A stretch of DNA of 29,064 nucleotides from a virus (Duplodnaviria; Caudoviricetes), in IMG/VR virus record IMGVR_UViG_3300020403_000060, positions 1 through 29,064 of that record; one strand, written 5' to 3'. Within the stretch, counting starts at the first letter, position 1. The number at the start of each line of letters is the position of its first letter. Positions 1-27,958 of this stretch are shown here, piece by piece. The position numbers and the translations under genes are program-made. A model generated the notes under the pieces. The model saw only the letters and a program-made list of their open reading frames with translations, did no database searches and was not told where the DNA came from.

Positions 1-123
1 GTAAGTAGAAACGGTCATAGAATTATGGGTGACTCAGATGATATGACAGTTAATACTGACAATGCAGGATTTGCTCTAGTTTATTATAACGCAACTTACG
101 GATGGAGGTTAAAAGAGAACTAA
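1..123 (+). CDS. C-terminal end (partial) of a tail-fibre/baseplate-type structural protein
   Basis: Frame 1 reads VSRNGHRIMGDSDDMTVNTDNAGFALVYYNATYGWRLKEN*, which matches the RNG..I.G...D......F.LVY....GW pattern common at the ends of marine phage fibre proteins. Its stop overlaps the next ATG (TAATG). Not in the ORF track. Confidence 0.7.
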   Translation, partial: VSRNGHRIMGDSDDMTVNTDNAGFALVYYNATYGWRLKEN

Positions 124-761
124 TGGGTTTGTATGCAAAATATAAAGTAATGCCATCTGGATTAGTTGCTCCTGGACAACATGTCTATCATGATTTTCAG
201 CATACTGGTGATAGTGATATGGGTCAAGAGCCTCACAGTTTGGTAAATGTATTAGTACATAAAGGAAGTAACATTCATATTGGTACTGGACCTACTATTA
301 GTACTGAGAGAGAAGGTGCCTTCTACAAATATCATAATATTGTAGCAATAAATGGTGTTGGTAGAGGAGCAGGTAATGGTGTAGATGTTTTAAGATGGAC
401 TGCAAAAGATAATAGAAATGATCAAGCACCAGCTAGCAGTTCGTTTTACTCTGTAGTTCAAGTACATATGAAATCAGCTGGACATACATCTGCTGGAGGT
501 AACGGTTCAAAATATGAGATAGCATCTGTAGAATATAACGGAGGAGCACCCTCAACTCTTAATCAAACATATCCAGTAGCTATAGGATACAATCCTTTGT
601 TTACATTATCACATAGCGGTTACACTACTACTCTTGAAGTTGCCGGAGGAGGATCAGGAGCCGGTGGTTTCAGTGGTCTTTTTGAAGTTGAAATTTATTT
701 TTCAAGAGGACAAGGTTCAGCTGGTAGTTATATTTTATTTGATTTAGAGGAGCTAATTTAA
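123..761 (+). CDS. Hypothetical Gly/Ser-rich structural (fibre-associated) protein
   Basis: ORF 102..761; the ATG at 123 is coupled to the upstream stop. Gly/Ser/beta-rich composition, lies in the fibre cluster, one GDSD. Confidence 0.6.
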   Translation: MGLYAKYKVMPSGLVAPGQHVYHDFQHTGDSDMGQEPHSLVNVLVHKGSNIHIGTGPTISTEREGAFYKYHNIVAINGVGRGAGNGVDVLRWTAKDNRNDQAPASSSFYSVVQVHMKSAGHTSAGGNGSKYEIASVEYNGGAPSTLNQTYPVAIGYNPLFTLSHSGYTTTLEVAGGGSGAGGFSGLFEVEIYFSRGQGSAGSYILFDLEELI

Positions 762-949
762 TGGATTCGGAAGGATATGTTTTTGGAGGTAATGTAACTC
801 AAAGAAATTTGAGAGTTGTTACAGATAGACAAAAAGCCTATTCTGAACAATTAGGTGGTTGGCAAGAACAGCTAGAAATGATTTATGAAGATGAGGCTGG
901 ATGGAGAGCTAAGATTGCTCAAATAAGAATAGACAATCCAAAGGAATAG
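761..949 (+). CDS. Small tail-fibre assembly chaperone-like protein
   Basis: 62 aa ending RQKAY..GGWQEQLEMIYED..W..I..I...NPK, typical of small ORFs that follow fibre genes in marine phages. TAATG coupling and GAGGAG SD. Confidence 0.55.
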   Translation: MDSEGYVFGGNVTQRNLRVVTDRQKAYSEQLGGWQEQLEMIYEDEAGWRAKIAQIRIDNPKE

Positions 950-957
950 GTTAAATA
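950..957 (+). promoter_or_regulatory. T4-type late promoter variant (GTTAAATA), 4 nt before ATG
   Basis: TAAATAGAATATG is identical to the element upstream of ORF 25357; no SD. Confidence 0.45.
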
Positions 958-961
958 GAAT

Positions 962-2566
962 ATGGGAATTAGATCAAAATCGTGGTATATTTCTAGACTA
1001 GTTCGCTCAACTGGTATTGTTAGAAATGAAGTAATAGAAGCTACTGGAACTGCAGACTCTGATGTTGCAGCTATTGCTGCACTTCGTAGAGAAGCCGATT
1101 CTGATACAGTTCGTATTCAATCAATAGCTACTGAAATTGAAGGTCTAGATGTATTAGTAGATTCAGATCTTAAAGCTATAAGTGATTTAAGAAATGATGT
1201 AGATAGTGACAGCTTAAAAATTCAAGCATTAGAAGAGACAGTAGCTGGACTACCAACTACTTCTTTCGATAGTGATCAAATAGTTGCTATTATAAATGAG
1301 AACTCGACAAGCGGGTCTGTAGATTCCGATGTTGCAGCTGTTGCAGCTTTACGAAGAGATGCTGATAGTGATAGTATAAGATTGCAACAAATACAAGCTG
1401 CTGTTGATTCAGATTATGCTCTCTTTAATGCTAAGATTGCATTGTTTAATGGTCTTACTGATAGTGATCTTTCAGTTGTAGCTGAATTAAGAAACGATTT
1501 AGATTCTGAAATAGCTAAAGGTCAAAATATATCTCAAACTGTATTCGAATATACTACTACAGCTCCTACTACTACTTTTTCAGGAGCAGATGATAATGGT
1601 AAACTCTTAAGTTATAGTGTAGGTAGAATACAAGTATACTTAAACGGTTTATTATTGTCTGAAGGAGCATCAAGAGATTATACAGCTACTAATGGTACCT
1701 CTATAGTACTGACAGAAGCTTCAGACTCTGATGATGTTTTAACTGTGGTTAAGTTTTTAGGACAACCGGATGATGTACTAACCGAAAGAACTGTATTTAA
1801 AGTAACAAGCGGAGAACATTCAGCAGGTGATTCTGAGTTTTCAGTAACTTATACTCCAGGTAAGATTCAAGTATTCTTAAACGGTGTTTTACTTAATGAT
1901 TCTGATGACTATACAGCTACTAATGGAACTTCCATAGCTCTTACCACTGCACCAGATTCTGACGATGTGTTGTCAGTATTTAGATTTTTAGGTACTGAAA
2001 TAACCCATACAGGATTTGATTCTGATCAAGTTACAAGCATAGTAAAAGAAACATTTACTAACTTAGGTAATAGAAATATTCAACTGGGTGGTGCAGAAAA
2101 AGACTCTGATATTTTAGGATATCATATTAAGATTCTTGGTAATGAATCAAATGTAGACAGTGAACAAAATACATTTAATCTTAGAAATTATGTTGAAAGA
2201 AAAGTTTGTGTAGTTAATTCAAGTGCAACTATAGCATACATTTATTATGGTGGTTTTGCTAACGAACAAGGTGGTAACCAGTATGATAGAACTACTGTGT
2301 TTATAAATTGGACAGGTCATCAAAGTAGTGGTGCTGGTACAGTTTTTGGCAAAGCGCTTCATGCAACTATTCAAGCTACAACCTGGACTTCAGGACAAGC
2401 GTTTGCAGGTTCAACACACGGAAGTTTACCTGATTTTGCCATCACACATGATTCATCAAACGAAAGATTTATAGTAAGTATAGGTACATCTACTAATGGT
2501 TGGGGAACAGCTGACGTTACTATTCAAGTTGGTAGATATCCAAAACAGATAGAGTGGTTGGTATAA
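962..2566 (+). CDS. Fibre/structural protein: DSD-repeat coiled coil, two DYTATNGTSI beta repeats, C-terminal head domain
   Basis: 534 aa with 14 DSD + 3 DSE. Two copies of Y..G.IQV.LNG.LL...DYTATNGTSI.LT...DSDDVL, with DNA similarity near 1680 and 1911. Confidence 0.7.
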   Translation: MGIRSKSWYISRLVRSTGIVRNEVIEATGTADSDVAAIAALRREADSDTVRIQSIATEIEGLDVLVDSDLKAISDLRNDVDSDSLKIQALEETVAGLPTTSFDSDQIVAIINENSTSGSVDSDVAAVAALRRDADSDSIRLQQIQAAVDSDYALFNAKIALFNGLTDSDLSVVAELRNDLDSEIAKGQNISQTVFEYTTTAPTTTFSGADDNGKLLSYSVGRIQVYLNGLLLSEGASRDYTATNGTSIVLTEASDSDDVLTVVKFLGQPDDVLTERTVFKVTSGEHSAGDSEFSVTYTPGKIQVFLNGVLLNDSDDYTATNGTSIALTTAPDSDDVLSVFRFLGTEITHTGFDSDQVTSIVKETFTNLGNRNIQLGGAEKDSDILGYHIKILGNESNVDSEQNTFNLRNYVERKVCVVNSSATIAYIYYGGFANEQGGNQYDRTTVFINWTGHQSSGAGTVFGKALHATIQATTWTSGQAFAGSTHGSLPDFAITHDSSNERFIVSIGTSTNGWGTADVTIQVGRYPKQIEWLV

Positions 2567-3762
2567 TGGGAAAAGCAACTAAAGCATTACATTTAGCTAG
2601 AGCTATGACCTCGCAAGCATCTGGTGTTAACATAAGTCCCGATCTGGGTTCTAATACAAAAAGTTTTAGAAACTTATTAATGAATGGTGATATGAATATA
2701 GCTCAAAGATTAGCTGTAGAGCAAAGCGGTCTTGGTGCATCTTCATTTACTGGTATTAATACAACAACATATATAATGGACAGATGGAGATGGGCTCAAG
2801 ATGCTGATTGTGTAGTAACTTTAAGTAGAAGTACTGATGTTCCAGCTGGCCTTGGATTTCCCGCTTCATTTAAAGTAGATGTAACTACAGTAGATTCTTC
2901 TATAGGTGCTGATCAACTTGCTCATATTCAAACAGCAGTAGAAGGAAGAGATTTACAACATCTTGCATACGGAACTTCTAGTGCAAAAAAACTAACTTTG
3001 TCATTTTGGGTTAAGTCTACTAAAACAGGTACATATTGTATTTGTTTAAGAAAGCCTGACAATACTGCTTATGGGTTTATAAAAGAATATACTATTAACA
3101 CTGCTGATACATGGGAAAAGAAAATAATTCATATAGAACCTGATAGCAATATAAAAGCTTCTGGTGGTGCTATAGATAATGATACAGGATTAGGTTTTAG
3201 AGTTATCTGGGCATTGTGTGTTGGATCTAATGACACAGGTACTGATAATGCATGGAATGCTGATAGTAGTGGAGCAAAGACTGCAACTACAAATCAAGTT
3301 AACTTTTTAGATAATACTGCAAATGATTTTTATCTAACCGGTTGTCAATTAGAAGTAGGAGACAAAGCAACAGAATTTGATTTTGTTCCAACCGATATAG
3401 AAACTTTTCGTTGCAAAAGATACTATCAAAGATATAATAGAAATGCAAACTATGCAGGACTTGGTGTTGTAGTCCCATGGAGTACTACTAATGGTAATTT
3501 ATTATGGACAATGGAAGTACAACCAAGAGGTAATCCTTCTATTGAATATGGTGATCTTTCTCATTTTGACATATTTGGAGTTACTGGAACAGGATCAACT
3601 GGTGTTCCTACAGGTTTTAGCAATTCTGGATGGGCTGGAGGTACTAGTATAGATATAGGTGTAACCGGTTCGGGGTTTGTTGCAGCAAGAGCTATGCTTG
3701 TTGAATATGATAACACATCAACAAACTTACCAGCTTTTTTAGCAATTAACGCGGAGTTATAA
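2566..3762 (+). CDS. Tail-fibre / carbohydrate-binding-like receptor-binding protein
   Basis: Motifs RNLLMNGDMNIAQR, DRWR, TLSFWVKS, YLTGCQLEVG..AT.F and RCKRYY, typical of marine phage fibre beta-sandwich domains. Start at ATG 2566 is coupled to the upstream TAA. Confidence 0.7.
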   Translation: MGKATKALHLARAMTSQASGVNISPDLGSNTKSFRNLLMNGDMNIAQRLAVEQSGLGASSFTGINTTTYIMDRWRWAQDADCVVTLSRSTDVPAGLGFPASFKVDVTTVDSSIGADQLAHIQTAVEGRDLQHLAYGTSSAKKLTLSFWVKSTKTGTYCICLRKPDNTAYGFIKEYTINTADTWEKKIIHIEPDSNIKASGGAIDNDTGLGFRVIWALCVGSNDTGTDNAWNADSSGAKTATTNQVNFLDNTANDFYLTGCQLEVGDKATEFDFVPTDIETFRCKRYYQRYNRNANYAGLGVVVPWSTTNGNLLWTMEVQPRGNPSIEYGDLSHFDIFGVTGTGSTGVPTGFSNSGWAGGTSIDIGVTGSGFVAARAMLVEYDNTSTNLPAFLAINAEL

Positions 3763-3763
3763 T

Positions 3764-3931
3764 ATGGCGAGATATCAATTAGTAAGAAAAAAAGATGGAA
3801 CTGTAGCTGGAGTTTTTAGTGATGAACTTAAAAAAGGTATTCCAGCAGATTCGGATAATATGGACTGGCTAGAATATTTGGAATGGGTTAAACAAGGCAA
3901 TGTAGCAGATCCTCCAGTAGGTGAAGAATAA
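3764..3931 (+). CDS. Small fibre-associated chaperone-like protein (55 aa)
   Basis: MARYQLVRKKDGTVAGVFSDELKKGIPADSDNMDWLEYLEWVKQGNVADPPVGEE, with an IP.D..N.D...YL.WV..GN motif and a GGAG SD upstream. Not in the ORF track. Confidence 0.7.
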   Translation: MARYQLVRKKDGTVAGVFSDELKKGIPADSDNMDWLEYLEWVKQGNVADPPVGEE

Positions 3932-3952
3932 ATATTTAAAGAGAAATAATTT

Positions 3953-5251
3953 ATGGCTTATAATTTTGATTCTGAATTTTACCCTATGATGGTCCGCGTA
4001 GAAGCGCAGACTGGAATCATTGTTCATTTCGATGAGAATAGTGATTATGAAGGTGTGTTTAGAGTTGAAATTGATTCTGATTATATAGTAGGAATAATTG
4101 ATAGTAGAATAGCTGCAGTATCTGGACTTGATTCTGATCAGACTTATAACATGATTCAAGAGCATGCTAAGTTTACAGATTCAGATCTAGCTGTAGTAGC
4201 TACTCTTAGAAACGAAGTTACAACTTTACGTTCAGATGCTGACTCAGATAGTACTAAACTTCAAGCATTGGAGGTAAAAGTTGAACTTATTGAAGCTTCT
4301 CTCGATTCAGATCAAACAGTATCTCTAGATCTTATTAGAAGAATAGATAGTGATGCAGCTAGAATATCTGATCTAACCAGAAATGCAGATTCAGATGCTA
4401 ATACTATTAAAGAGCTTGTAGGTACGTTAGACTCAGATGGTAGATTGTTAGAAAAAGTATTACAAGCAGAATCAGATATTATTAAATTAAGGTCGGACTT
4501 AGATTCTGAATCAGTTCAGGTTAGAGCTCTTAGAAGCGATGTAGATTCAGACTTGTTTGATATGAGTGATGTTATAGCAAGACTAGATTCAGATGAGCTT
4601 AAGGTTCAAGATTTGGAAAGAAGATTAGCAATCTTAGAAGCTAATGTAGATTCAGATAGACTATGGACTAGAAACGAAGTATACAATCAAATTGAACCAA
4701 GACTTGATAATCTAGAAGATTCAGATTATTATGATTCTGATAGAGTGGTAAGAACTATAGCTCTTAATAGACTTGATCCTACAGATAGTGATACATTACT
4801 AACAGCTATTAAGAACGAAACTGGTAGTCATTTAACAAGAATTATTTCGTTAGAAAGTTTATTAGGAATAAGTTCATCGTCAGCTGCAGTAGCTTCACCT
4901 AGTGACTCAGATCTAAATACAATTGAATATGCTCAAGATGGTTCTACTTTATCAGTAAACACAGTTATAAGCTGGTATATGTATAGCTTAGGCGGCGGAG
5001 AGATTATTAGAAGACAGTTTACTATAACGGAAGGTTCCCCTTATAGTGCAATAATTAGAACATTAGCTTACACAGTCAATAATGATTCTGTAGCTATGGA
5101 ATATTTAGACAGCTTTAGAATAGATTATGATCAACCTGGTGACGCAGACGATAAGATTCATTTTAGATTTAAAACCGGGTTTGAAGATATGACATTTGAT
5201 GCTGAAGTCGATATTACTGGTGACTCTGGTAGATTGACAGTTACACAATAA
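3953..5251 (+). CDS. DSD-repeat coiled-coil structural protein (fibre/whisker-like)
   Basis: 432 aa with 15 DSD + 2 DSE in a heptad-patterned helix. AATAAATA late-like element at 3927-3934. Lies directly before the sheath gene. Confidence 0.65.
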   Translation: MAYNFDSEFYPMMVRVEAQTGIIVHFDENSDYEGVFRVEIDSDYIVGIIDSRIAAVSGLDSDQTYNMIQEHAKFTDSDLAVVATLRNEVTTLRSDADSDSTKLQALEVKVELIEASLDSDQTVSLDLIRRIDSDAARISDLTRNADSDANTIKELVGTLDSDGRLLEKVLQAESDIIKLRSDLDSESVQVRALRSDVDSDLFDMSDVIARLDSDELKVQDLERRLAILEANVDSDRLWTRNEVYNQIEPRLDNLEDSDYYDSDRVVRTIALNRLDPTDSDTLLTAIKNETGSHLTRIISLESLLGISSSSAAVASPSDSDLNTIEYAQDGSTLSVNTVISWYMYSLGGGEIIRRQFTITEGSPYSAIIRTLAYTVNNDSVAMEYLDSFRIDYDQPGDADDKIHFRFKTGFEDMTFDAEVDITGDSGRLTVTQ

Positions 5252-5258
5252 TGAGAAA

Positions 5259-5266
5259 TATAAATA
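5259..5266 (+). promoter_or_regulatory. T4-type late promoter TATAAATA
   Basis: Perfect gp55 consensus in the intergenic gap before the sheath gene; AGGAG SD follows. Confidence 0.8.
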
Positions 5267-5293
5267 TAGAAAGAGTATAATAGGAGTCTCACA

Positions 5294-7411
5294 ATGGCAT
5301 TTTTAGTTAGTCCAGGTGTGCAAATTGTAGAAAAAGATCTTACTAACATCATCCCAGCGGTGTCTACATCGATTGGTGGTTTTGCTGGTAAATTTGAATG
5401 GGGTCCAGCGTTAGATGTGACAACGGTATCTTCAGAGAAAGATCTTATAGCTAAGTTTGGATACCCAAAAATTTCAACAAATGACGCATCTAGCACTAGA
5501 GATGACTGGTTTGCAGCTGCTAACTTTTTAGGTTATGCTAATCAGTTACAAGTTGTAAGAGCAATATCAGATGGAGCTAGAAATAGTGCTTCAGAGCCAG
5601 TAGTTGGTTCTTCATCTACAGTTTCAGTTGTTCTAACAGGTACAGTATCTTCTACAGTGTTTACATCATCTAATGTAGTTCTTTATGATGGTTCTACTTC
5701 AGTTTCATTTACAGCAGATGCTAGTACATTAGGTTCAGTTGCAGATGCATTTAGAGCAGCTTTGGTTTCTGCAGGGGTTGGTTCTGTTTCAGTTGACTCA
5801 GATGGTATAGCAGGTATTGTTGACCCAACAGTTAAGTATGCTGCATCAGGTATTACTTTACCAGCTGCACAAACAATTAACGGTGTAACATTTACATTCT
5901 TTGTAAACACAGATGCAGCTGCTACAGCTACTACATTAACATCGGCTCAGCTTAATAACTTAGACGATTTCTTAGTAGAAAAAAGTACATTAGTTAACGG
6001 ATCAATATATGCAAGATTTCCTGGAAAATTAGGAAACAGTATTGGTGTTATCTTGATGGATGCATCTATTGATGAATCTGACTTTAAGAACCATGTATTA
6101 TTTGGAAGTACAAAAGCGTCAGATCTATTTGATACTAAACCTGGAACTAGCTCTTGGGGTTCAAATTATTCGACAGCTCCTCAAGATGAACTCCATGTTA
6201 TTGTATATACTACAGATACTCTTATTACAGGTAACGCAAATGAAATATTAGAACAATATGGTTACTTGTCAAAAGCTAAGAATGGTAAGACTGCAGATGG
6301 AGGTCCAAACTTCTACGTAGATATTATTAATGACCAGTCTCAATGGATTTATGCACTAAGTGAAGAATCATCAGCTCAAAGCGCAGTAATTGATTCGGAC
6401 TCAGGAGGAAGCGTACTACAATCTATTGGAGATACATTAAGCAGCCTTACATCTTCAACAAGGTTTAAGTATTTTCTTACTAATATGTCCTTAACAGGGT
6501 TTAGAAAATATGCGTTGGGTGGAGGAACCGATGGTGCTTCTGTATCGGATGGTAATTATACCACAGCATATGACTTGTTAAAGGATGATCAAGTAATTGA
6601 TGTTAACTTACTTATTACAGGTGAAAGATCTGCAACAGTTTCTAAACATGTAATAACAATAGCAGAAGCGAGAAAAGATGCAATTGCATTCTGTTCACCA
6701 AGTTATTCTGCTGCAGTTAACAATCCAACAGCAGAAAAAGTAATTAATTATTTTTCTACATTTAACTCTTCATCATATGCAGTATTTGACTCTGGTTATA
6801 AGAGACAATACGATAGATACAATGATGAGTATTTTTGGATGCCTCTTAATCCAGACACAGCAGGACTAACAGCTAGAGCAGAATTTACAAATGATGCTTG
6901 GTTCTCTCCTGCAGGTCTTAACAGAGGATTTATTAACAATGTAGTTAAATTATCATTTAATCCAAATCAAACAGACAGAGATCAGCTATATCCAAATAGA
7001 GTTAACCCTGTAGTTACCTTTAGAGGTCAAGGTACACTTCTATATGGAGATAAGACTGCCTTATCTAGACCATCTGCATTTGATAGAATTAATGTTCGTA
7101 GATTGTTTATTGTTCTTGAGAAAGCAATTGCAACTGCAGCTAAGTTCCAGTTGTTTGAATTCAACGATGACTTAACAAGAAGAACATTTGTTAATGCAGT
7201 AGAACCTTTCCTTGCTGAAATTTCAGCTCGTAGAGGTATAACAGACTTTAGAGTTGTTTGTGATACTTCAAACAACACTGGTCAAGTCATTGATGGTAAC
7301 AGATTCGTTGCTGATATCTACATTAAACCAGCTCGCTCGATTAACTTTATTACACTTAATTTTGTTGCGGTGAGAACTGGAGTTTCATTTAGTGAGGTAG
7401 CAGGAGCATAA
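5294..7411 (+). CDS. gp18: Tail sheath protein
   Basis: N-terminal FLVSPGVQIVEKDLT and FEWGP; C-terminal WFSPAG.NRG, LYGDKT, SAFDRINVRRLF and IYIKPARSINFITLNFVAVRTGVSF. Confidence 0.97.
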   Translation: MAFLVSPGVQIVEKDLTNIIPAVSTSIGGFAGKFEWGPALDVTTVSSEKDLIAKFGYPKISTNDASSTRDDWFAAANFLGYANQLQVVRAISDGARNSASEPVVGSSSTVSVVLTGTVSSTVFTSSNVVLYDGSTSVSFTADASTLGSVADAFRAALVSAGVGSVSVDSDGIAGIVDPTVKYAASGITLPAAQTINGVTFTFFVNTDAAATATTLTSAQLNNLDDFLVEKSTLVNGSIYARFPGKLGNSIGVILMDASIDESDFKNHVLFGSTKASDLFDTKPGTSSWGSNYSTAPQDELHVIVYTTDTLITGNANEILEQYGYLSKAKNGKTADGGPNFYVDIINDQSQWIYALSEESSAQSAVIDSDSGGSVLQSIGDTLSSLTSSTRFKYFLTNMSLTGFRKYALGGGTDGASVSDGNYTTAYDLLKDDQVIDVNLLITGERSATVSKHVITIAEARKDAIAFCSPSYSAAVNNPTAEKVINYFSTFNSSSYAVFDSGYKRQYDRYNDEYFWMPLNPDTAGLTARAEFTNDAWFSPAGLNRGFINNVVKLSFNPNQTDRDQLYPNRVNPVVTFRGQGTLLYGDKTALSRPSAFDRINVRRLFIVLEKAIATAAKFQLFEFNDDLTRRTFVNAVEPFLAEISARRGITDFRVVCDTSNNTGQVIDGNRFVADIYIKPARSINFITLNFVAVRTGVSFSEVAGA

Positions 7412-7412
7412 G

Positions 7413-8039
7413 ATGACAGTTCGTATTGATGATTTTAAAACAGCTTTAGCTGGTGGTGGTGCAAGAGCTAACCTATTTAGAGTAAATTGTAACTGGCCTA
7501 ATGGAGACATTCAAGGTGGTGCTAATACAGCATTCGGCGCAAGTGCAACAGAAGCTCTTAGTTCTTTTATGATAAAAACTGCCGCAATGCCAGCTAGAAC
7601 AATCGGAGAAGTTATTGTTCCGTTTAGAGGTAGACAATTAAAAGTATCTGGAGATACTATCTATGATGCTTGGACGGTACAGGTTATTAACGATAACAAC
7701 TTTGCTGTAAGAAATGCTTTCGAAAGATGGCAAGATGCGATAAACGGTGCAGCTACAAACGTATCAGGAAGAGGTGTTGATGCTTCTTCATTTGACTCAT
7801 ACACGGCTAATATGGAAATTGAACAACTTAGTCGTACAGGTGCAGTCATAAAAAGATATGTATTGTATGCTGCATGGCCTACTGTTGTGGATACTATTGA
7901 TGTCTCCTACGACAGTACAGATACAATTGAAGAGTTTGCTGTTACATTTGCATATCAGTGGTGGGAAGCTAACACTACTAGTGAGCCTACAACTGGTAGA
8001 GTCACTGCTGATGTTGCTGAAGTACCTGTAACACAATAA
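7413..8039 (+). CDS. gp19: Tail tube protein
   Basis: GGGARANLF, PFRGRQLKVSGD, W.VQVINDNNF.VR.AFERW and IEEFAVTFAYQWW; follows gp18. Confidence 0.95.
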   Translation: MTVRIDDFKTALAGGGARANLFRVNCNWPNGDIQGGANTAFGASATEALSSFMIKTAAMPARTIGEVIVPFRGRQLKVSGDTIYDAWTVQVINDNNFAVRNAFERWQDAINGAATNVSGRGVDASSFDSYTANMEIEQLSRTGAVIKRYVLYAAWPTVVDTIDVSYDSTDTIEEFAVTFAYQWWEANTTSEPTTGRVTADVAEVPVTQ

Positions 8040-8062
8040 CTCTTCATTACATAATGAGGAGT
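8039..8062 (+). promoter_or_regulatory. Hairpin sequestering the portal ribosome-binding site
   Basis: ACTCTTCATT-acat-AATGAGGAGT forms a 10-bp stem (one G-U) covering GAGGAG, 5 nt before ATG 8067. Confidence 0.55.
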
Positions 8063-8066
8063 CCTT

Positions 8067-9671
8067 ATGGCTATTCAAAAAGAAGAACTTTTCGGATTCG
8101 AACTAGTTCAGAACAAGAATGATAAACCAGTTCCGTCACCCATACCAAAACCTATGGATGATGGAACTGATCTTCCTGTTGGCGGCCGTATTGGTTATAC
8201 TTACGAACAGTATAGCAAAGCGCGTAATGAACATGCTCTCATAGCTCAGTACAGAGATATATCTTTTTATCCAGAAGCTGATTCAGCTATAGATGATATT
8301 GTAAACGAAGCTTTTACAACTGAGCATGAAAGACCTACTGTATCAATTAGATTAGATTTACTTAACATAGATGATAGAATTAAAGAAACTATTAGAGAAG
8401 AGTTTAAAAACACTCTTCATTTACTTAAGTTTCAAAGAAGATCATATGATATTTTTAGACAATGGTATGTAGATGGTAGAGTCTATTATCAAGTAATTAT
8501 TGATCCTAATGATTCTAGAACAGGGATTAAAGAACTTAGACCTATTGACGCTTTAAAAATTAAAAGACATGTTAAGCCGTTCTATGAAAAAGACCCTAGA
8601 ACAGGTGTCCCTATCTTAATAAAGGTAGATGAGTTTTTTGAATACTCACCCGATGGAGGCAATAATGGAGTAAAACTATCTAAAGATAGTATTGTATTTT
8701 GCCCGTCAGGTTTAGTTGATAGAAACAAAGGACAAATAGTAGGTTATTTAGACAAGGCAATTAAACCATTTAATAATTTAAGATCAATGGAAGATGCTCT
8801 TATTGTATATCGTATAGCAAGAGCACCTGAAAGAAGAATATTTTATGTAGATGTAGGAACATTACCTAAAATTAAAGCAGAGACTTATCTTCGTGATATG
8901 ATGAATAGGTATAGAAATAAAATAGATTATAACCCTAACACAGGAGAAATTCGTGACTCTAGAAAATTTATGTCACTCCTTGAAGACTTCTGGCTCCCTC
9001 GTAGAGAAGGTTCGCGTGGTACAGAAATTTCGACACTCCCTGGAGGACAAAATCTTGGAGACCTTGATGACGTCAATTACTTCAAAGAAAAATTGTACCA
9101 ATCACTCAACGTCCCAATCTCAAGAATCAACCAAGACAACAACTTCCAGCTCGGAAGAGCATCAGACATCTCAAGAGATGAGATCAAGTTCAGTAAGTTC
9201 ATTAAAAGAATAAGAAAACAATTTGCTGAGATTTTTAACGAAGTATTAAGAGTTCAATTAGTACTAAAAGGTGTATGTACTCAAAAAGAATTTGAAGAGA
9301 TGAGACAATATATCTCTTATGACTATCTCAAAGATATGCACTTTGATAAACTTAAACAAGTAGAACTACTTAATGACCAATTAAGTGTATTAAGAGATGC
9401 TTCTGAGTATGTAGGTAAATATTTCTCAATAGAATATGTACGCAAAGTAATCCTTGGTCAAACAGAAGAAGATATTGCAAGAATAGATAAAGAAATTATG
9501 GATGAGATGACTAAAGAACAAATTAAAGATCCTGATGCACCTCCTTCTCCGTTTGGATTTGAGAGTGTTGATCTACCAGGACCTGAAATAGTACCATCCG
9601 GAGAAAAAGATGTTCTTACTATAAATACTGAAACGGAGATTGTTGAGCAAGATGCCTCTACCTTACAATAA
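8067..9671 (+). CDS. gp20: Portal vertex protein
   Basis: FRQWYVDGR, MEDALIVYRIARAPERRIFYVDVG.LPK.KAE.YL, EDFWLPRREG.RGTEISTLPGGQNLG and I.RDEIKF.KF. Confidence 0.98.
   Translation: MAIQKEELFGFELVQNKNDKPVPSPIPKPMDDGTDLPVGGRIGYTYEQYSKARNEHALIAQYRDISFYPEADSAIDDIVNEAFTTEHERPTVSIRLDLLNIDDRIKETIREEFKNTLHLLKFQRRSYDIFRQWYVDGRVYYQVIIDPNDSRTGIKELRPIDALKIKRHVKPFYEKDPRTGVPILIKVDEFFEYSPDGGNNGVKLSKDSIVFCPSGLVDRNKGQIVGYLDKAIKPFNNLRSMEDALIVYRIARAPERRIFYVDVGTLPKIKAETYLRDMMNRYRNKIDYNPNTGEIRDSRKFMSLLEDFWLPRREGSRGTEISTLPGGQNLGDLDDVNYFKEKLYQSLNVPISRINQDNNFQLGRASDISRDEIKFSKFIKRIRKQFAEIFNEVLRVQLVLKGVCTQKEFEEMRQYISYDYLKDMHFDKLKQVELLNDQLSVLRDASEYVGKYFSIEYVRKVILGQTEEDIARIDKEIMDEMTKEQIKDPDAPPSPFGFESVDLPGPEIVPSGEKDVLTINTETEIVEQDASTLQ
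9620..9627 (+). promoter_or_regulatory. T4-type late promoter inside the portal 3' end, upstream of gp13
   Basis: Perfect TATAAATA ending 24 nt before ATG 9652. Confidence 0.6.
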
Positions 9672-10767
9672 ACAAGAGTTAGCAGATTGGATCTTACGTA
9701 GACTCGGTGCACCGGTTATCAACGTAGAGATTGCTGATGTTCAACTTGAAGATTGTATTGATGAAGCAGTTCAGTTCTTTCACTATTATCATTATGACGG
9801 TGCTCAAAGATCTTATAGAACAATTAAAGTAGATACTAATCTATTAAACCGTAACAAAAGAATACATCAAGATTTAACAGCTGAAGATTTTGACTCTGAT
9901 ATTTTAAACACCTATAGAGTAGGTGATAGAGTCATGCTTAAGAAAGATAATGTACAAGGTAAAAGAATTTATATTAAGAAAGATTCAGAAGCTCCTGATT
10001 ACGATTCAGATCAGTATGGAGCTTTAGTTTTAGATTCAGATGGTGTAACTTATAGAGCTTTAGATTCTGATTTAGATTTTTCTGATTCTGATTCTCCAAC
10101 CAGATTTACTCAAGTAACTAGACATGATGGCTTTAACAAATACTTTGTAGAAGAACAAGTATTGCTAGAAGAACAAAATATTACAGTCACTAGTACTGGT
10201 CAAATAGGAATTAAAGTGCCAGATAGTATAGTATCAGTTACAAAGGTTTCTAAAGTTGATTCCTTTACTCAAGCGGGTATGTATAATTTTGAGTATCAAT
10301 ATTTTTTAAACAACTTTGATATGTTCTATAGCGGTGCTCATGGTACAGGTTTATCAAATTATTATACACAAAAATTAAATGTAGAACATATTGATTTTCT
10401 TCTCAATACAATGCCTGCTATTAGATTTAACATGTATAAAAGTAGATTATACTTAGATGTTGATTGGAAGAGAATTAATACTCAAGCAAGTAATAAGAAT
10501 TTTTATTTACTTTGTGAAGTTTACGAAGTAGCCGATCCTGAAATTAATGGAGAGGTATATAAAAATACGTGGTTAAAAAGATATGCAACCGCGTTAGCAA
10601 AACAGCAGTGGGGTTCTAATTTGAAAAAATATCAAAACACAGAACTACCTGGTGGAGTACAACTTGATGGTCAAGGGTTATGGCAAGAAGCTACAACTGA
10701 AATTCAAGAGTTAGAAGAAGAGTTAAAGAATGCAACACTTGAAATGGATTCTATACTCTGGGGTTAA
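9652..10767 (+). CDS. gp13: Neck protein with a DSD-rich insertion
   Basis: ILRRLGAPVINVEI...Q..DCID.A.Q.F..YHYDG and WLKRYATALAKQQWGSNL.KY....LPGGV.LDG. Likely start ATG 9652. Confidence 0.93.
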   Translation: MPLPYNKQELADWILRRLGAPVINVEIADVQLEDCIDEAVQFFHYYHYDGAQRSYRTIKVDTNLLNRNKRIHQDLTAEDFDSDILNTYRVGDRVMLKKDNVQGKRIYIKKDSEAPDYDSDQYGALVLDSDGVTYRALDSDLDFSDSDSPTRFTQVTRHDGFNKYFVEEQVLLEEQNITVTSTGQIGIKVPDSIVSVTKVSKVDSFTQAGMYNFEYQYFLNNFDMFYSGAHGTGLSNYYTQKLNVEHIDFLLNTMPAIRFNMYKSRLYLDVDWKRINTQASNKNFYLLCEVYEVADPEINGEVYKNTWLKRYATALAKQQWGSNLKKYQNTELPGGVQLDGQGLWQEATTEIQELEEELKNATLEMDSILWG

Positions 10768-10772
10768 AAAGG

Positions 10773-10780
10773 AATAAATA
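10773..10780 (+). promoter_or_regulatory. Late promoter variant AATAAATA, 4 nt before ATG
   Basis: One mismatch to TATAAATA; same spacing to ATG as three other sites. Confidence 0.5.
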
Positions 10781-10784
10781 AATT

Positions 10785-10943
10785 ATGATGGACTTTAGAG
10801 ATTTTTTACAAGCTGATGAGTCAGATGATTTTAATAAATCTTTCAAAGAAGAGATGACTAAGCGCGTTTTTGCTAAACTCGACGACATGAAACGTACTAT
10901 GGCCAAAGATTATTTGACGAGTGATGAAAATGAATCTTCTTGA
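10785..10943 (+). CDS. Small prohead core protein (gp67-like)
   Basis: 52-aa charged helical ORF MMDFRDFLQADESDDFNKSFKEEMTKRVFAKLDDMKRTMAKDYL..., in the gp67 position. Not in the ORF track. Confidence 0.55.
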   Translation: MMDFRDFLQADESDDFNKSFKEEMTKRVFAKLDDMKRTMAKDYLTSDENESS

Positions 10944-11754
10944 ATGGAAACAATATCAGACTCAAACGTTTAGAGAAGAGTTGAAGAGACAGATGCATGC
11001 TGGCGTGTCTCATGATACTCACTTCTTGTTTTCTGACGAACAGTTAGAAGAAATGAAGCAAGAAGTTGAAATAGAACGTTTTGAAGAAACAGTAACCTTT
11101 GATGGTGAGATTGATTTAGACCCTCAACTAATCGAAAATCATTCTGAAGTACAAGAAGTATTTGACTTTGTTCCTAACGAAGAAGGTCAAGTAATGGATT
11201 TGGTATTTGAATTTGATTTAAATGTAATCGATCCTTCTATTAATAGCATGAATGCTTTACGTGAGCTTTTATTTGCTGAAGATTATGAAATGGAAATGAT
11301 AGAAGAAGAGAGTATAAAAGAAGGTGAAGATTTAGACGGAGAAGATAAAAATTGTGGTTGTGGTCAAACTCCATGTAAGACTTACGGAATGAAAGATGCA
11401 TTATCTGATGAAGATTTAGATCGTTGTAATGAAAATGTAATCGCCGAGGAAAAGAATCCAGCCGGAGGTAAAAAGACAAAAGGTAAACCACAAAGAGCAA
11501 AAGTAATTTTTAAGAGAGCTAAAGGTCAAGTAAGTAAAAAGAAAATTTGTGGACCAGGAATGAGATTAGCAGGTAATAGATGCTTGCCTCAAACAGGAAC
11601 TCAGAAAGCAAAGATGCGCCGCGCTGGTATAAAACTTAAAAGAGCGAAAAGAGCTATGGGCGGCGGCGCTAAGAAAAAAGCAGCATTGAAAGCTAAGATT
11701 ACCAAACGTAGAGTTAAAGGTAGATCTAGATCATTGGCTAACACGACTAATTAA
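10930..11754 (+). CDS. Prohead core protein (gp68-like) with acidic N-terminus and very basic C-terminus
   Basis: Position upstream of gp21; Lys/Arg-rich tail (KLKRAKRAM..KKKAALKAKITKRR). Confidence 0.55.
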   Translation: MNLLEWKQYQTQTFREELKRQMHAGVSHDTHFLFSDEQLEEMKQEVEIERFEETVTFDGEIDLDPQLIENHSEVQEVFDFVPNEEGQVMDLVFEFDLNVIDPSINSMNALRELLFAEDYEMEMIEEESIKEGEDLDGEDKNCGCGQTPCKTYGMKDALSDEDLDRCNENVIAEEKNPAGGKKTKGKPQRAKVIFKRAKGQVSKKKICGPGMRLAGNRCLPQTGTQKAKMRRAGIKLKRAKRAMGGGAKKKAALKAKITKRRVKGRSRSLANTTN

Positions 11755-11765
11755 AGGTATAGAAA

Positions 11766-12110
11766 ATGGCAACTAATGTAGTATCAAAAAATTTAAAAGG
11801 TGGTGGCTCTACACCAGGAAATAGAGTAGTGTATCATATATACGATGCCAATGCTTCTTTAACAGCTCAAGATTTTACTTTCGCTAGAGGTTCAGGAGCT
11901 ATAGGAGATTCTGAATATGTGCCTGTAAGAATAATTGAGTCAGTTATTAACATGGGGCAATCTCCTGTAACAATTGATGGTAAAGATTTTGAAACAGGAA
12001 GATGGGAAATGTCAATGCATGGTGGAATTAGATTAGATACAGTCGGTGTATGTGCTGTAACTTTCGGAACTGCTAGTCAAGGAAATGTATTGATAGAATT
12101 CAGGAGCTAG
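11766..12110 (+). CDS. Hypothetical head-module protein
   Basis: 114-aa beta-rich ORF directly before gp21; contains GDSE. Confidence 0.6.
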   Translation: MATNVVSKNLKGGGSTPGNRVVYHIYDANASLTAQDFTFARGSGAIGDSEYVPVRIIESVINMGQSPVTIDGKDFETGRWEMSMHGGIRLDTVGVCAVTFGTASQGNVLIEFRS

Positions 12111-12803: not shown

Positions 12804-14882
12804 ATGGAAAAAAATAACGGTTTAATTGATGTTATTGAGGAGCTTTTGGAAGCAGATATGACTGCACCTAAAAAGGTTAAAAACCCTCAAAATAAAATGG
12901 CTGCAGAAGAAAAAGTTGAAGAAGCACAAGACAAGTCAGATGCTTCTGTTAAAAAGCTTCCTAATTCAAAGCCTAAAGCAGATAATCAATCAGATAATTC
13001 ATCTGAGATTATCGGATCTGAAAAAGGCGCAGCTATGGATGCTGGCGGTGATAAGGATGTAGGTAAGATGGATAAAGGTAAACTTCCTTCTGATGCATCT
13101 GATAATTCTAGCGAGGTTATCGGTAAGAACTCCGGAGCAGCATTAGATGCAGGGGGTGATAAAGATGTTGGAAAGCCTAAAAATAAAGATAAAGGTCAGC
13201 CTTCAGATGCTTCACCAGCAGCTGAGCCAAATAAAGGACCACATAATCAAGCTATGGATGAAGATCTACATGATGCAGATGACAGCATTGCTGAAGATGA
13301 CGGAAGTGATAATGAATCTGTGGAAGAAGGTCAAGACACCAAAGTAGAAAAAGATTCTAACGATGAACAGCTTCCAGATGAAGAAAAAGAATCAATGAAG
13401 AATATGAAATCTGAAGAAGTTGAAGAAGATATGGAATGGGATTGGGATAAAATTGATTCATTATCAGAAGACGAATTTAATGAGCTAGTTGATCAATTAA
13501 GTGAAGACGAGCTTAAAGAGTTTAATGATCATTATGAAGAGCTTAAGGAAGCTAAGCATAAAGATAAAGAAGATGATGATGAAGATCATGATGATAAGGA
13601 AGAAGCAGACGAGTCAGTTGAAGAAGGTCATGATAAAGATCATGATGACGACGATGACGATGACGATGACGATGATGACAAAGAAGAAGCTGATGAGTCT
13701 GTAGAAGAAGAAATGGAGTGGGATTGGGAAAAGATCGAAGGTCTTACTGAAGAAGAATTCCATGATTTCTATACAAACTTATCAGAAGAAGATCAGGCAG
13801 AGATTGAAGACCATTATAAAGAAGTCACTGAAGCTCATGACAAAGGAGACATGGATGGTGATGGAAAAGATGAGCCTGACGATAAAGAATATATGGACAA
13901 TAAAGATAAAGCTATCAAAAAGGCTATGGGCAAAAAAGCTGAAGAGTCTGTAGAAGAAGCTAAACATAAAGATAAAGAGGATGATGAAGAAGAGGTTGAA
14001 GAAGCAACTGGTGAAAAGCTTGAAGCAGCTCCTTCTAAAGCTGAAAATGATGCTATGCGTCCTAATGAAGAAAAAGGTAAAAATGAGCCTACATCTAAGG
14101 GTGGTAATCCTGGTGAAGGAGCTCATGACCAATCTAATGATCCAAATGAAACATCTACAAAAGCTAATCCTAAAGGACCAGTTAAAGAAGATGTTGATGA
14201 TTTAACAGAAGATCTTGAAGATGACTTCAAAGAAAAAGCAGCAGTTATTTTTGAAACAGCTGTTAATGAAAAAACAAATATCATTAGAGAAGAAATCGAA
14301 GCTGAGTACGCTCAACAATTAGAAGAAAAAGTTGATGAGATCAACGAAAGAGTTAATGAGTATGTTGACTATGTCGTAAATGAATGGCTCGAAGAAAATC
14401 AACTTGAGATTAAATACTCACTTCGTACAGAAATTGCAGAAAACTTTATTCGCGAAATGAAGACAGTTTTCGAATCAAACTTTATCGATATTCCAGAAGA
14501 AGAAGTATCAGTTGTTGATGAATTGACTGAAGCAGTTGAGTCATATAAAGAGCAAATTGAAGAGCAATCTTCTGAGCTTGAGACAGCTAAGAAAGAGCTT
14601 TTGGAAATAAAGAGAAAAGAAATTGTCGAGTCTATCGGTGATGACCTTCCACAGACACAAAAGATCCGCTTAGAAAAGTTGTCTGAGAATGTTGAAGCTG
14701 AAGACATCGAAGAGTTCAGATATAAAGTCGAGCAGCTTAAAGAAGGCTATTTTGATGAGTCATCTGAGCAACCGCTTCTTAGCTCATTGAGTGAGGAAGT
14801 ATTCGGTGGAACCGTTATCGAAGAAGATGATAGTTCTGTATCGCAGTACGCGAAGTTTCTTTCAAAGACTGTGACTAAGTAA
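12804..14882 (+). CDS. gp22: Prohead core scaffold protein with a long, acidic, repetitive N-terminal extension
   Basis: C-terminal FKEKAAVIFETAV, YVDYVVNEWLEEN.L.I...LRTEIAENF, F..NFIDIPEE and L.EGYF; lies between gp21 and gp23. Confidence 0.92.
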   Translation: MEKNNGLIDVIEELLEADMTAPKKVKNPQNKMAAEEKVEEAQDKSDASVKKLPNSKPKADNQSDNSSEIIGSEKGAAMDAGGDKDVGKMDKGKLPSDASDNSSEVIGKNSGAALDAGGDKDVGKPKNKDKGQPSDASPAAEPNKGPHNQAMDEDLHDADDSIAEDDGSDNESVEEGQDTKVEKDSNDEQLPDEEKESMKNMKSEEVEEDMEWDWDKIDSLSEDEFNELVDQLSEDELKEFNDHYEELKEAKHKDKEDDDEDHDDKEEADESVEEGHDKDHDDDDDDDDDDDDKEEADESVEEEMEWDWEKIEGLTEEEFHDFYTNLSEEDQAEIEDHYKEVTEAHDKGDMDGDGKDEPDDKEYMDNKDKAIKKAMGKKAEESVEEAKHKDKEDDEEEVEEATGEKLEAAPSKAENDAMRPNEEKGKNEPTSKGGNPGEGAHDQSNDPNETSTKANPKGPVKEDVDDLTEDLEDDFKEKAAVIFETAVNEKTNIIREEIEAEYAQQLEEKVDEINERVNEYVDYVVNEWLEENQLEIKYSLRTEIAENFIREMKTVFESNFIDIPEEEVSVVDELTEAVESYKEQIEEQSSELETAKKELLEIKRKEIVESIGDDLPQTQKIRLEKLSENVEAEDIEEFRYKVEQLKEGYFDESSEQPLLSSLSEEVFGGTVIEEDDSSVSQYAKFLSKTVTK
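12990..14000 (+). repeat. Internal duplications in gp22 and a (GAY)n poly-Asp tract
   Basis: SDNSSE.IG...GAA.DAGGDKDVGK x2; EE.MEWDW.KI..L.E.EF x2; EAKHKDKEDD x2; DKEEADESVEE x2; GATGAC-type run at about 13644-13679. Confidence 0.85.
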
Positions 14883-22615: not shown

Positions 22616-23646
22616 AGATAGCGTTTATAGGTGACTTACATTTTGGTTGCCGTAATTCTAATCAAGTTATTCAAAGACATCAAGAAATATTTTTAGAGAA
22701 AGTTTTTTGGCCTTATATAAAAGAACAAGGTATAAAAACTATTATTCAAACTGGTGATTATTTCGATAATAGAAAATGGATTAATCTACAAACAATGTCG
22801 TTTCAAAAACGAGTTTTTGTTGATAAAGCTAAAGAGTTAGATGTAGTAGTTCATGGTATTATTGGTAATCATGATATACCTTTACGGCATTCTTTGTCTA
22901 TGAACTCACCTCAGCAGATACTTACTGATGATCATATGAACTTTTATAGTGAACCTAAAGTAATTAACTTTGACGGAATAGATATTACTTTTATTCCTTG
23001 GGTGTGTAAAGAGAATGCAGAAGAAATAACATCCGTAATTAAAGCTGGTGGTGATTTGTTAGTAGGTCATTTAGAGACGCAAGGTGCAGTACTACTACCA
23101 GGTAGATTATCTGATGAAGGTTATGCACCTAAAGACTTTAAGAAATGGAAAGAAGTTATATCAGGTCACTATCATACTCAGAATAAGATTGCTAACGTTC
23201 ACTATATTGGATTACCTTATCAGCTTATGTGGAATGATACTGCATCTAAACAAGGTTTTTGGATACTAGATACTACTGACCGGTCCTGGGAGTTTATAGA
23301 AAACGAATATAGTTATTTTCATAGATTAACTTGGAATGACGGTTGTGATTATAACTTAGAGTTGCTTGCAGATAGTTATGTTAAGGTAAACATAAAAAAG
23401 AAAACTAGCTTTGAAGAGTTTGAACGTTTTATAGATAAAGTAAACTTTCAAGTACCATTTGAGGTAAAAATTGTTGAGTCGTTCGAAGAATATAATCAAG
23501 AGAATGTAAAAGATATTATTCAATTGTCTTCTACTACAGAGCTAATAGGTGAATATATTGATGATGTAGCTACGGATAATAATAAAGAATCTATTAAGAA
23601 CCTTATGATAGATATATATGAAGAAGCTATGAGCATCGAAGAATGA
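22612..23646 (+). CDS. gp47: Recombination endonuclease subunit (Mre11/SbcD-like)
   Basis: Metallophosphoesterase motifs GDLHFG, GDYFD, GNHD, GHLE and SGHYH; GTG start. Confidence 0.95.
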   Translation: MKIAFIGDLHFGCRNSNQVIQRHQEIFLEKVFWPYIKEQGIKTIIQTGDYFDNRKWINLQTMSFQKRVFVDKAKELDVVVHGIIGNHDIPLRHSLSMNSPQQILTDDHMNFYSEPKVINFDGIDITFIPWVCKENAEEITSVIKAGGDLLVGHLETQGAVLLPGRLSDEGYAPKDFKKWKEVISGHYHTQNKIANVHYIGLPYQLMWNDTASKQGFWILDTTDRSWEFIENEYSYFHRLTWNDGCDYNLELLADSYVKVNIKKKTSFEEFERFIDKVNFQVPFEVKIVESFEEYNQENVKDIIQLSSTTELIGEYIDDVATDNNKESIKNLMIDIYEEAMSIEE

Positions 23647-27103: not shown

Positions 27104-27958
27104 ATGCGAGTATCTCTCTTCACTGACTACGGAGCACTCAACTCCCCAGAGGTCTTTTCTGCCTTTGCAGAAGGATGTGACGCTGAAATCGTATTCAATG
27201 AAATGGACGCAGACGTTGCAGTCATTTGGTCCATATTATTCGCAGGAAGAATGGAACCAAACCGTCAAGTATGGGACCATTACAATAAACGGAATAAGCC
27301 TATCATCGTACTTGAAGTCGGAGCAATCAAACGAAACGAAACATGGCGAGTAGGTATCGGCGGCATCAATAATGGTGCTATTTTTGCTAACAAAGAAAAC
27401 TTAGAAGAAGGCAGGGTAGAAAAGTTTGGTTTAAAACTCAAGCCCTGGATAGATGATGGACAGTTTATTACAATCGCTACTCAACGACCAGACTCCCACC
27501 AATGGTCCTCAATGCCAAGAGTTGAAGACTACTTACGAGATGCTATTCGGGAAATTAGAGAGTATAGCTCCAGAGATATCGTTATCAGACCCCACCCTAG
27601 AGACAGGATTACAGACTTTCCTTCAATTGCTAGAGAAGTTAGGGGCGTGTATTTCGACGTCCCCAAACATACCGGTATAGCAGATAATTATAATTTTTCA
27701 GATATCTTAGATAGATCTTGGTGTGTAGTAAATCACTCATCTAATCCTGCAATAGAAGCTACAGTTAGAGGAGTACACACATATACAGGATGTCAATCTT
27801 TTGCTTACCCTATGTCTATAAGAAATTGGAGAGATATAGAAAATCCTCCTCGTAAAGATAGAAACTTGTGGTTACAACAACTTACTCATATTGAATGGTG
27901 GCCAGAAGAAATAGCAGAAGGAAAACCATGGAACCGTTTGAAAAACTATCTTTGGTAA
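27104..27958 (+). CDS. Glycosyltransferase-like protein (resembles capsule-polysaccharide KpsS/KpsC type), paralog 1
   Basis: LKPW...G..I.I.TQRPD, IVIRPHP, L..SWCVV.HSSN.AIEA...GV and W..EI..G..W. Confidence 0.6.
   Translation: MRVSLFTDYGALNSPEVFSAFAEGCDAEIVFNEMDADVAVIWSILFAGRMEPNRQVWDHYNKRNKPIIVLEVGAIKRNETWRVGIGGINNGAIFANKENLEEGRVEKFGLKLKPWIDDGQFITIATQRPDSHQWSSMPRVEDYLRDAIREIREYSSRDIVIRPHPRDRITDFPSIAREVRGVYFDVPKHTGIADNYNFSDILDRSWCVVNHSSNPAIEATVRGVHTYTGCQSFAYPMSIRNWRDIENPPRKDRNLWLQQLTHIEWWPEEIAEGKPWNRLKNYLW

Follow-up and report, generated by a model that had tools for sequence, protein, structure and literature searches.

A D-S-D/E tripeptide dispersed over the outer tail and neck proteins of a clade of marine T4-like phages, a predicted serine O-glycosylation sequon

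Enrichment of D-S-D/E in the window

The 29,064-nt virus record IMGVR_UViG_3300020403_000060, analysed over its whole length and hereafter called the window, is a fragment of a T4-like myophage in which the tripeptide Asp-Ser-Asp or Asp-Ser-Glu (D-S-D/E, written DS[DE]) recurs in tail fibre, sheath and neck proteins. Enrichment of this tripeptide is a trait of one clade of marine T4-like phages. Since it is strict, centred on Ser and placed freely on exposed parts of unrelated proteins, it looks like an enzyme sequon, and we put at about 0.5 the probability that it serves phage-encoded serine O-glycosylation, which would give a predicted sugar coat to the tail. The feature is real, strange and testable; its mechanism is unproven.

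DS[DE] was counted in the 35 open reading frames (ORFs) of the window with 2000 per-protein shuffles as control, a check proposed in a preliminary description of this DNA, and 48 sites were found versus a shuffled mean of 8.8 and a shuffled maximum of 20. The count by eye given in that description, 39 DSD and 8 DSE in nine ORFs of nt 1-12110 followed by a single DSD in gp46, was exact, and the motif was indeed absent from the fibre encoded at nt 2566-3762, the tube, portal, capsid and scaffold (gp22, none versus 2.15 expected). DSD was the top tripeptide of the window (40 versus 4.87 expected, Poisson p 3e-23), the next being RAK (11 versus 2.0). Composition as the cause, already rejected in the description, was ruled out by the shuffles together with the counts and per-protein expectations in relatives.

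Only the ORFs starting at nt 962 and 3953 and gp13 were significant individually (p 0.0005), whereas neither the sheath (2 versus 0.56, p 0.11) nor the ORFs with one site each (p 0.02-0.06) reached significance alone, so that support for these comes from relatives. In addition, 23 of the 48 sites sit 14, 21 or 28 residues from another site, and part of the count therefore represents repeat amplification in coiled coils. For these two reasons the pattern was tested in relatives.

A trait of one clade

A FastTree phylogeny was built from sheath proteins with a length of 520 aa or more, 93 distinct sequences in all, with DS[DE] excess called at p under 0.01. All loci with an excess (32/32) fell inside one 37-row sheath clade with a support of 100, and none of the 56 rows outside was enriched. 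Five rows within the clade were below the cut, three of which still carry five sheath sites.

G015, a single 152-kb record of 85% completeness, contained 151 DSD versus 18.2 expected and 42 DSE versus 13.7. By location, ORFs for tail, baseplate and neck (27) had 175 sites (11.2 expected), and the other 169 ORFs had 18 (20.8 expected), 10 of which were confined to two unannotated ORFs. The latter, located in the replication region of G015 at 36231-36881 and 41968-42933 with five DS[DE] each, are predicted from the motif to encode virion proteins.

The proteins tagged in the clade include gp7-like, gp8, VrlC-like, gp9-like, gp13, gp14, gp15, the sheath and fibres, while gp6 and gp25 had no site and the hub genes 0-1 (some baseplate and tail labels rest on gene order and sequence reading). 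The motif is dispersed over about 25 unrelated virion proteins. Unrelated propeller fibres of relatives also carry it, and a 1769-aa fibre with 65 sites (G004, 27243-32552) was the densest case seen. In gp13, the insertion that holds the neck sites is absent from distant gp13s and has 2 to 15 sites across relatives, with 15 in L013. No family match to the ORF at nt 11766-12110 was obtained; across 30 clade sequences its orthologues were 24-fold enriched in the motif, and its product could be a head or neck decoration protein.

C48C1 (OQ984149), a deposited complete Kyanoviridae genome outside the clade, has no host in its record, and a literature search gave no paper on it. DSD is in weak excess in its fibres, sheath and gp15: leaving out the repeat protein, 19 were counted where 10.4 would be expected (p 0.0075), with three sites appearing twice and two sites in the outer sheath. 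It has a gene similar to pmgQ of phage P1 (see below), and no Kdo-type (3-deoxy-D-manno-octulosonate) glycosyltransferase (GT) was found in the 136 kb compared.

Sites on the virion exterior

In the 37 clade sheaths, 139 of 141 sites were located within window residues 98-410, where 10.0 were expected, with none in residues 1-97 and two at the boundary. Residues 98-410 align to domains I-II of T4 gp18, which are exposed to solution with domain I protruding (PMC3004832). By analogy, the sheath sites would face the solvent. The two DSD of the window sheath, at residues 168 and 367, align to T4 domains I and II, respectively, and sheaths that lack domain I keep two sites at the junction. No site was found in the tube (28 sequences) or the protease (29 sequences), and the portal had 4 versus 14.5 expected, the scaffold 24 versus 48.6 and outgroup sheaths 19 versus 23.0 (n=56). 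Where inspected, the sites were internal and not at the C-termini of capsid or tube. The proposal that the motif marks exterior parts of the virion is thus supported by the sheath domains that are exposed in T4, by the empty tube and protease, and by the depleted portal.

Strictness, conservation and selection on the peptide

Motif statistics were obtained from the pooled motif-bearing proteins of the window and G001-G004, in which a few sites were counted twice owing to a 1-kb overlap of pieces. DSD (456 occurrences) was enriched 18.7x and DSE (98) 9.5x, as opposed to DTD (4, 0.2x), ESD (8, 0.8x), DND (0.6x) and DDD (0.3x). Every other DS-x reached at most 1.3x (DSA 0.9x, DSL 1.1x, DSI 1.1x, DSV 0.6x), DT-x was not enriched, and Pro followed the motif in only 1 of 530 distinct contexts.

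Among 18 orthologues of the fibre ORF starting at nt 3953, 16 of 17 sites were kept in 83-100%. When the other two residues were kept, position 1 was D in 263/263 and position 2 was S in 263/263, and position 3 toggled between D and E (228/35, 2 T). Identity was 0.87, 0.88 and 0.75 at the three motif positions versus 0.49 in the flanks, and the motif Ser was 88% identical versus 31% for other Ser. Sites turn over in other proteins, occupying 22 alignment columns in clade sheaths. The fibre domain of ORF 962 shares 56% identity with the fibre of pelagiphage HTVC109P and carries DSD in a loop where HTVC109P has other residues. These alignments indicate that the motif arose anew at many different positions and that, in one case, a domain of borrowed origin received it.

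Neutral repeat expansion, or a motif at the DNA level, would be in keeping with the periodic spacing of 23/48 window sites and with a slight under-use of AGY Ser codons inside the motif (9-17% versus 21-32%, p 0.12 to 6e-7); the D-S codons spell GANTC, which we take to be the alphaproteobacterial CcrM site. Against such an origin, GANTC showed no enrichment where it encodes E-S or when read in either other frame, 9 of the 48 sites use AGT (the others TCT 18, TCA 17, TCG 3 and TCC 1), and the sites are spread over unrelated folds, are better conserved than the sequence around them and avoid interior domains. A GANTC-driven cause was ruled out by the lack of enrichment outside the D-S frame, and the explanation as a whole, largely refuted already by these tests, is highly improbable. 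The mixed usage of TCA, TCT, TCC, TCG and AGT that the preliminary description reported was confirmed, and together with the GANTC result it argues for selection on the peptide. That selection acts on the peptide and not on a DNA repeat, as had been claimed, is also evident from a strict motif that is kept while its flanks drift.

Glycan cassette and candidate writer enzymes

The window ends in three GT-like genes, the first of which (ORF 27104) gave a fold model with a predicted local distance difference test score (pLDDT) of 94 and Foldseek matches to the WbbB/KpsC beta-Kdo transferases (E 1.2e-7, template-modelling score 0.47-0.56, 12-15% identity), placing it by fold with the retaining beta-Kdo transferases WbbB, KpsC and KrkA. 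The cassette of relatives extends further, to sugar-nucleotide enzymes and to GT-A, GT8-like and PmgQ-like GTs, and their island also has KdsA-like (a label read from sequence) and cytidylyltransferase-like genes. The cassette is kept in three sublineages, and in G015 (105-6996) one molecule encodes both it and the tagged proteins.

The PmgQ-like gene is located past the window end and was read from G014, whose 27104 orthologue is 86% identical. This GT shares 62-69% identity across sublineages, in line with terminase (66-69%), and no more than 40% outside. Of 574 confirmed viral matches, the top 80 comprised nine with 70% identity or more, all others having 43% or less. None of five records with 34-43% identical homologues (G020-G024) extends to the sheath gene. 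It resembles LgtC/GT8 (E 2e-4) and weakly glycogenin, and a 57% identical homologue is fused to a tetratricopeptide repeat (P0239). In P1 the homologue, PmgQ (26% identical), is encoded downstream from a late promoter, with a sialyltransferase-annotated gene nearby, and is non-essential (PMC10695390). P1 pmgO-pmgQ (L327:1123-3681) comprises two GT-annotated genes downstream of the late promoter, which makes P1 a ready test of virion glycosylation by PmgQ.

If the tripeptide is a glycosylation sequon, the first sugar would be transferred to the DSD Ser in the cytoplasm of the infected cell by a phage-encoded GT. The GT8-like, PmgQ-like enzyme at the cassette end might add it, although this assignment is a candidate only and takes a small share of the overall probability. 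The three Kdo-transferase-like enzymes and other GTs would extend the chain with an acidic sugar, perhaps Kdo-like, and the resulting coat could limit sticking, proteolysis or decoy binding in seawater while the fibre heads stay mostly bare.

Other candidates were rejected as the writer. The ORF 27104 family is not specific to DSD, because it is widespread in viruses (about 1900 stretches estimated from 21 of 64 parts scanned) and occurs in the complete phage G007, which has no DSD excess. An SdgB-type enzyme, Pkinase and RIO1 are not common to the clade records, and GT25 was seen only in the islands of G002 and G013, not in G014 or in the gene lists of G012 and G015. The AGT-like gene of G001 and G015, the only sublineages in which this part was sampled, is near thymidylate-synthase-like and nucleotide-modification genes and was thus read as DNA-directed. 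A basic loop of the PmgQ-like GT was dismissed as a DSD-binding site, the basic stretch being present in outside homologues as well.

Evidence against glycosylation and alternative readings

Several observations weigh against glycosylation, beginning with the enzymes. The cassette is mostly or fully present in Mosig, G007 and G008, none of which has a DSD excess (observed versus expected 9 vs 13.8, 30 vs 27.1 and 12 vs 8.6, respectively), and P1 has PmgQ with 10 DSD versus 8.0. Conservation of the PmgQ-like GT may reflect plain vertical descent, which its tree fits (33 of 74 outside rows kept). PF09318 and PF00534 (SdgB-type) were each found in 0/5 clade records, the best being 85% complete, and no enzyme-like gene was both common to the sublineages and absent from the outgroup set, about 70 kb being sampled in one sublineage only. 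Moreover, such phage GTs have been assigned to host O-chain modification (PMC7029224). The link to a GT cluster made in the preliminary description therefore stood in part: DSD phages do carry the cassette, on one molecule in G015, but co-occurrence does not discriminate because the same cassette occurs in Mosig, G007 and G008 without the motif.

In a bolder reading, an old virion-glycosylation cassette, with a PmgQ/GT8-like initiator and Kdo-transferase-like extenders, would be common to large aquatic myophages, and each lineage would use its own short acceptor code on its outer proteins. The codes would then be D-S-D/E in the clade, as a dispersed virion-wide sequon with a portable Ser tag and its enzyme, G-N-[IV] in the jumbo phage G007 and G-T-G in G005. 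Such a system would be new to the literature on tailed phages. This proposal is tentative, and the odds are against it. In G007 (347 kb, complete; L288-L305) GNV was enriched 5.3x and GNI 5.9x, often as G-N-x-T, in virion-like proteins and most strongly at 200000-240000; in the T4-like outgroup G005 (L314-L320) GTG was enriched 3.6x in 16/25 virion-like proteins, with no DSD excess.

The placement of some sites also speaks against a sugar coat. The capsid, which is the largest surface, is barely tagged (15 versus 7.4 in 31, 2-fold). Hydrophobic peaks at -8, -5, -1, +6, +9 and +13 place the third residue (D/E) of 391 heptad-periodic contexts at core position d and Ser, facing outward, at c; the coiled-coil core would be spared if the motif occupied e-f-g.

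This register would suit an unmodified motif that binds a cation directly (Ca2+, Mg2+ or Fe3+ from seawater), with an axial ion held between three d-position Asp in trimeric stalks and an acidic, metal-bridged surface on loops. No writer enzyme is needed for this, none has been pinned down, and ion-holding polar d layers are known, among them the Ca2+-binding NxxQD motif in the tail needle of P22 and an adhesin stalk that has D at d (PMC13580157). However, heptad-periodic sites make up only 23/48 in the window and 24/193 in G015, the rest being in loops, insertions and termini of unrelated folds, and DTD, DND and DDD (0.2x, 0.6x and 0.3x) are depleted. Acidic metal motifs usually tolerate other middle residues. 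Direct cation binding is accordingly doubtful.

Tagged domains expected to leave the virion form another objection. All four S74 tail-chaperone domains found (4/4, belonging to a single orthologous group) have a loop with two DS[DE] sites, although the self-cleavage motif appears intact and the tagged part is expected to be shed. Such sites, as well as those in small fibre-block ORFs, would suit a non-covalent docking tag that is read as the tail assembles, by a small decoration protein of the phage or by a phage factor for folding or assembly, and a few small clade-only genes without known function exist. Up to 65 sites on one G004 fibre and the free expansion of the gp13 insertion suit a coat better, and a tripeptide would be short for stable binding; docking is improbable.

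A covalent change other than a sugar, either Ser phosphorylation or a phosphodiester, or Asp beta-hydroxylation by phage 2-oxoglutarate-Fe oxygenases leading to an iron-chelating coat, would be equally served by the sequon-like strictness. Genes for Asp/Asn-hydroxylase-like proteins (PF05118) are present in G001, G002 and G011, the G002 island has a RIO1-like kinase, and a host kinase is possible. The oxygenases, however, are in variable islands and are at most 30% identical between sublineages, and PF00069 was detected in 0/5 and PF01163 in 1/5 clade records, neither of them in the 85% complete G015, so that the change is unlikely to be of this kind. Phosphate, one of the two Ser modifications named in the preliminary description, found no backing, as no kinase was shared among the five clade records. 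That description overall held for selection on the peptide, exterior sites and the presence of a GT cassette, and failed for the GT co-occurrence test, phosphorylation and an analogy with Bacteroidota.

Comparison with known systems

Glycosylation of the motif would be closest to that by SdgB, a soluble enzyme that O-GlcNAcylates (adds O-linked N-acetylglucosamine to) a bare DSD tripeptide, the staphylococcal Ser-Asp repeat adhesins being substrates of SdgB/SdgA (PMC8561734). Both have a minimal Asp-Ser-Asp motif on surface-displayed proteins, with DSD enriched 18.7x and Ser kept in 263/263 in the phages. In staphylococci, however, SD units follow one another in a long tandem tract confined to one protein family, whereas in the phages the motif is dispersed and includes DSE, intervals between sites peak at 14 and 21 residues and equal 2 in only 20 cases, and no GT-B PF00534 or DUF1975 (PF09318) was found in the five clade records. 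By sequence, then, the phage motif seems to work like that of SdgB and is not a member of the SdgB/SdgA system, having neither a tandem tract nor such an enzyme.

In mycobacteriophages, virion glycans are reported at the C-termini of capsid and tail tube (Freeman et al. 2023, as cited in PMC12619734 and PMC10877033). The genomes are alike in encoding glycosyltransferases that would coat the particle. Unlike there, tube and capsid of the clade are nearly untagged (0 in 28 and 15 in 31, counts that test the motif, not glycans), and its sites occur inside the sequences of sheath, neck, baseplate and fibre proteins.

The preliminary description also drew an analogy with O-glycosylation in Bacteroidota, where the sequon is D-(S/T)-hydrophobic with L/I/V/T/A/S/M as third residue and D or E each under 1%, Thr is accepted, and transfer is periplasmic and acts on non-cytoplasmic proteins (PMC12871550). 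The two share an Asp directly before the modified Ser, with Glu not accepted at that place. The phage substrates are, by contrast, T4-type sheath, neck and baseplate proteins, which are assembled in the cytoplasm. The analogy thus fails on the third residue, the exclusion of Thr and the compartment.

Pelagimyophages and cyanomyophages have GT islands in a marine T4-like plan rich in GT8 (PMC7029224). GT8-rich islands, radical S-adenosylmethionine genes and curli genes are shared with the clade; in that paper the GTs are host-directed and its main text contains neither "DSD" nor "motif", and the cultured phage Mosig has the cassette without a DSD excess. Curli CsgF and CsgG and an alternative oxidase were noted in clade members (G001; L114:14546-15891 and L115:4340-4879). 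Ion-binding layers of trimeric coiled coils (N at d, NxxQD; PMC13580157) resemble the phage stalks in the polar residue at heptad d. They differ in being confined to coiled coils, whereas most clade sites are outside heptads, and "DSD" is absent from the accessible text of that paper.

No description of the DS[DE] motif was met in the literature searched, most subscription papers and all supplements being outside that search. The points that are new are the count of sites per sheath domain, the tag on a borrowed domain, the register within heptads, the PmgQ-like candidate and its negative controls, and the weak excess in C48C1. Marine T4-like phages have many GTs, which are usually assigned to host lipopolysaccharide or DNA. 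With so sharp an acceptor motif on the outside of the tail, the virion itself becomes a substrate that can be tested, with peptides and enzymes that are named. If glycosylation is correct, abundant ocean phages would carry a genetically placed sugar coat that affects their adsorption and decay as well as viral carbon, and glyco-engineering would gain a useful Ser tag of three residues that comes with a soluble writer. Were the motif an unmodified cation site instead, it would still be an undescribed virion-wide surface code.

Gene content of the window

The window, with a GC content of 35%, encodes in order a fibre block, sheath gp18, tube, portal, neck gp13, head protease, scaffold, capsid, gp3, IscA, PhoH, UvsY, UvsW, gp55, gp47, gp46 and the three GT-like genes. 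The T4 core set is present in its usual order (gp18-19-20, gp21-22-23, gp3, UvsY, UvsW, gp55, gp47, gp46), which places the phage among the T4-like marine myophages. The nearest GenBank match to its capsid protein is 51% identical, indicating no close relative in GenBank; its relatives are contigs from marine metagenomes, and the clade is uncultured. A GTDB scan for the host gave no relative, and IscA homologues, nearly all without organism name, were uninformative. Features are listed in Table 1.

Table 1. Features bearing on the D-S-D/E motif in the window and in compared records
Location (nt)	Strand	Feature	DS[DE] sites
1-123	+	C-terminal end of virion/fibre-type ORF, cut by contig end; phrog_31104 and phrog_35687 matches	1 DSD
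123-761	+	212-aa fibre-block ORF, no PHROG or Pfam family	1 DSD (residue 30)
761-949	+	62-aa small fibre-block ORF; phrog_9114	DSE (residue 2)
962-2566	+	Tail-fibre protein, heptad stalk and two copies of pelagiphage-fibre beta domain; phrog_38058	14 DSD, 3 DSE
2566-3762	+	Tail-fibre protein, internal negative; phrog_4492	none
3764-3931	+	55-aa small fibre-block ORF	1 DSD
3953-5251	+	Clade fibre, predicted long helical stalk and C-terminal beta domain	15 DSD, 2 DSE
5294-7411	+	Tail sheath gp18	DSD at residues 168 (nt 5795-5803) and 367 (nt 6392-6400)
9652-10767	+	Neck protein gp13	5 DSD, 1 DSE, all inside variable insertion (~nt 9830-10115)
11766-12110	+	114-aa ORF ahead of head protease	1 DSE
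23643-25346		gp46	1 DSD
27104-27958	+	Glycosyltransferase, WbbB/KpsC beta-Kdo-transferase-like fold; first glycan-cassette gene	
27895-28734	+	Second paralogue of ORF 27104 GT family	
28697-29064	+	Third paralogue of ORF 27104 GT family, cut by contig end	
L006:2816-4285, L009:1-753, L111:1-1590, L130:2690-3736		S74 domains with motif	
OQ984149: 10340-11890, 126305-131011, 137672-139045, 154814-3884		Regions noted in C48C1	

The structure model of ORF 3953-5251 was of low confidence (monomer pLDDT 47). Across the clade gp13 keeps its position between portal and head genes, not beside gp14/gp15. The scaffold gp22 (12804-14882) has 692 aa; its T4_CASP domain (461-665) is preceded by a long, acidic extension at the N-terminus, and its full-length relatives measure 614-729 aa. 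Just upstream of the GT cassette, nt 25357-27090 encode a 577-aa Lys/Glu-rich protein of no family, the length of which varies from 313 to 923 aa in relatives.

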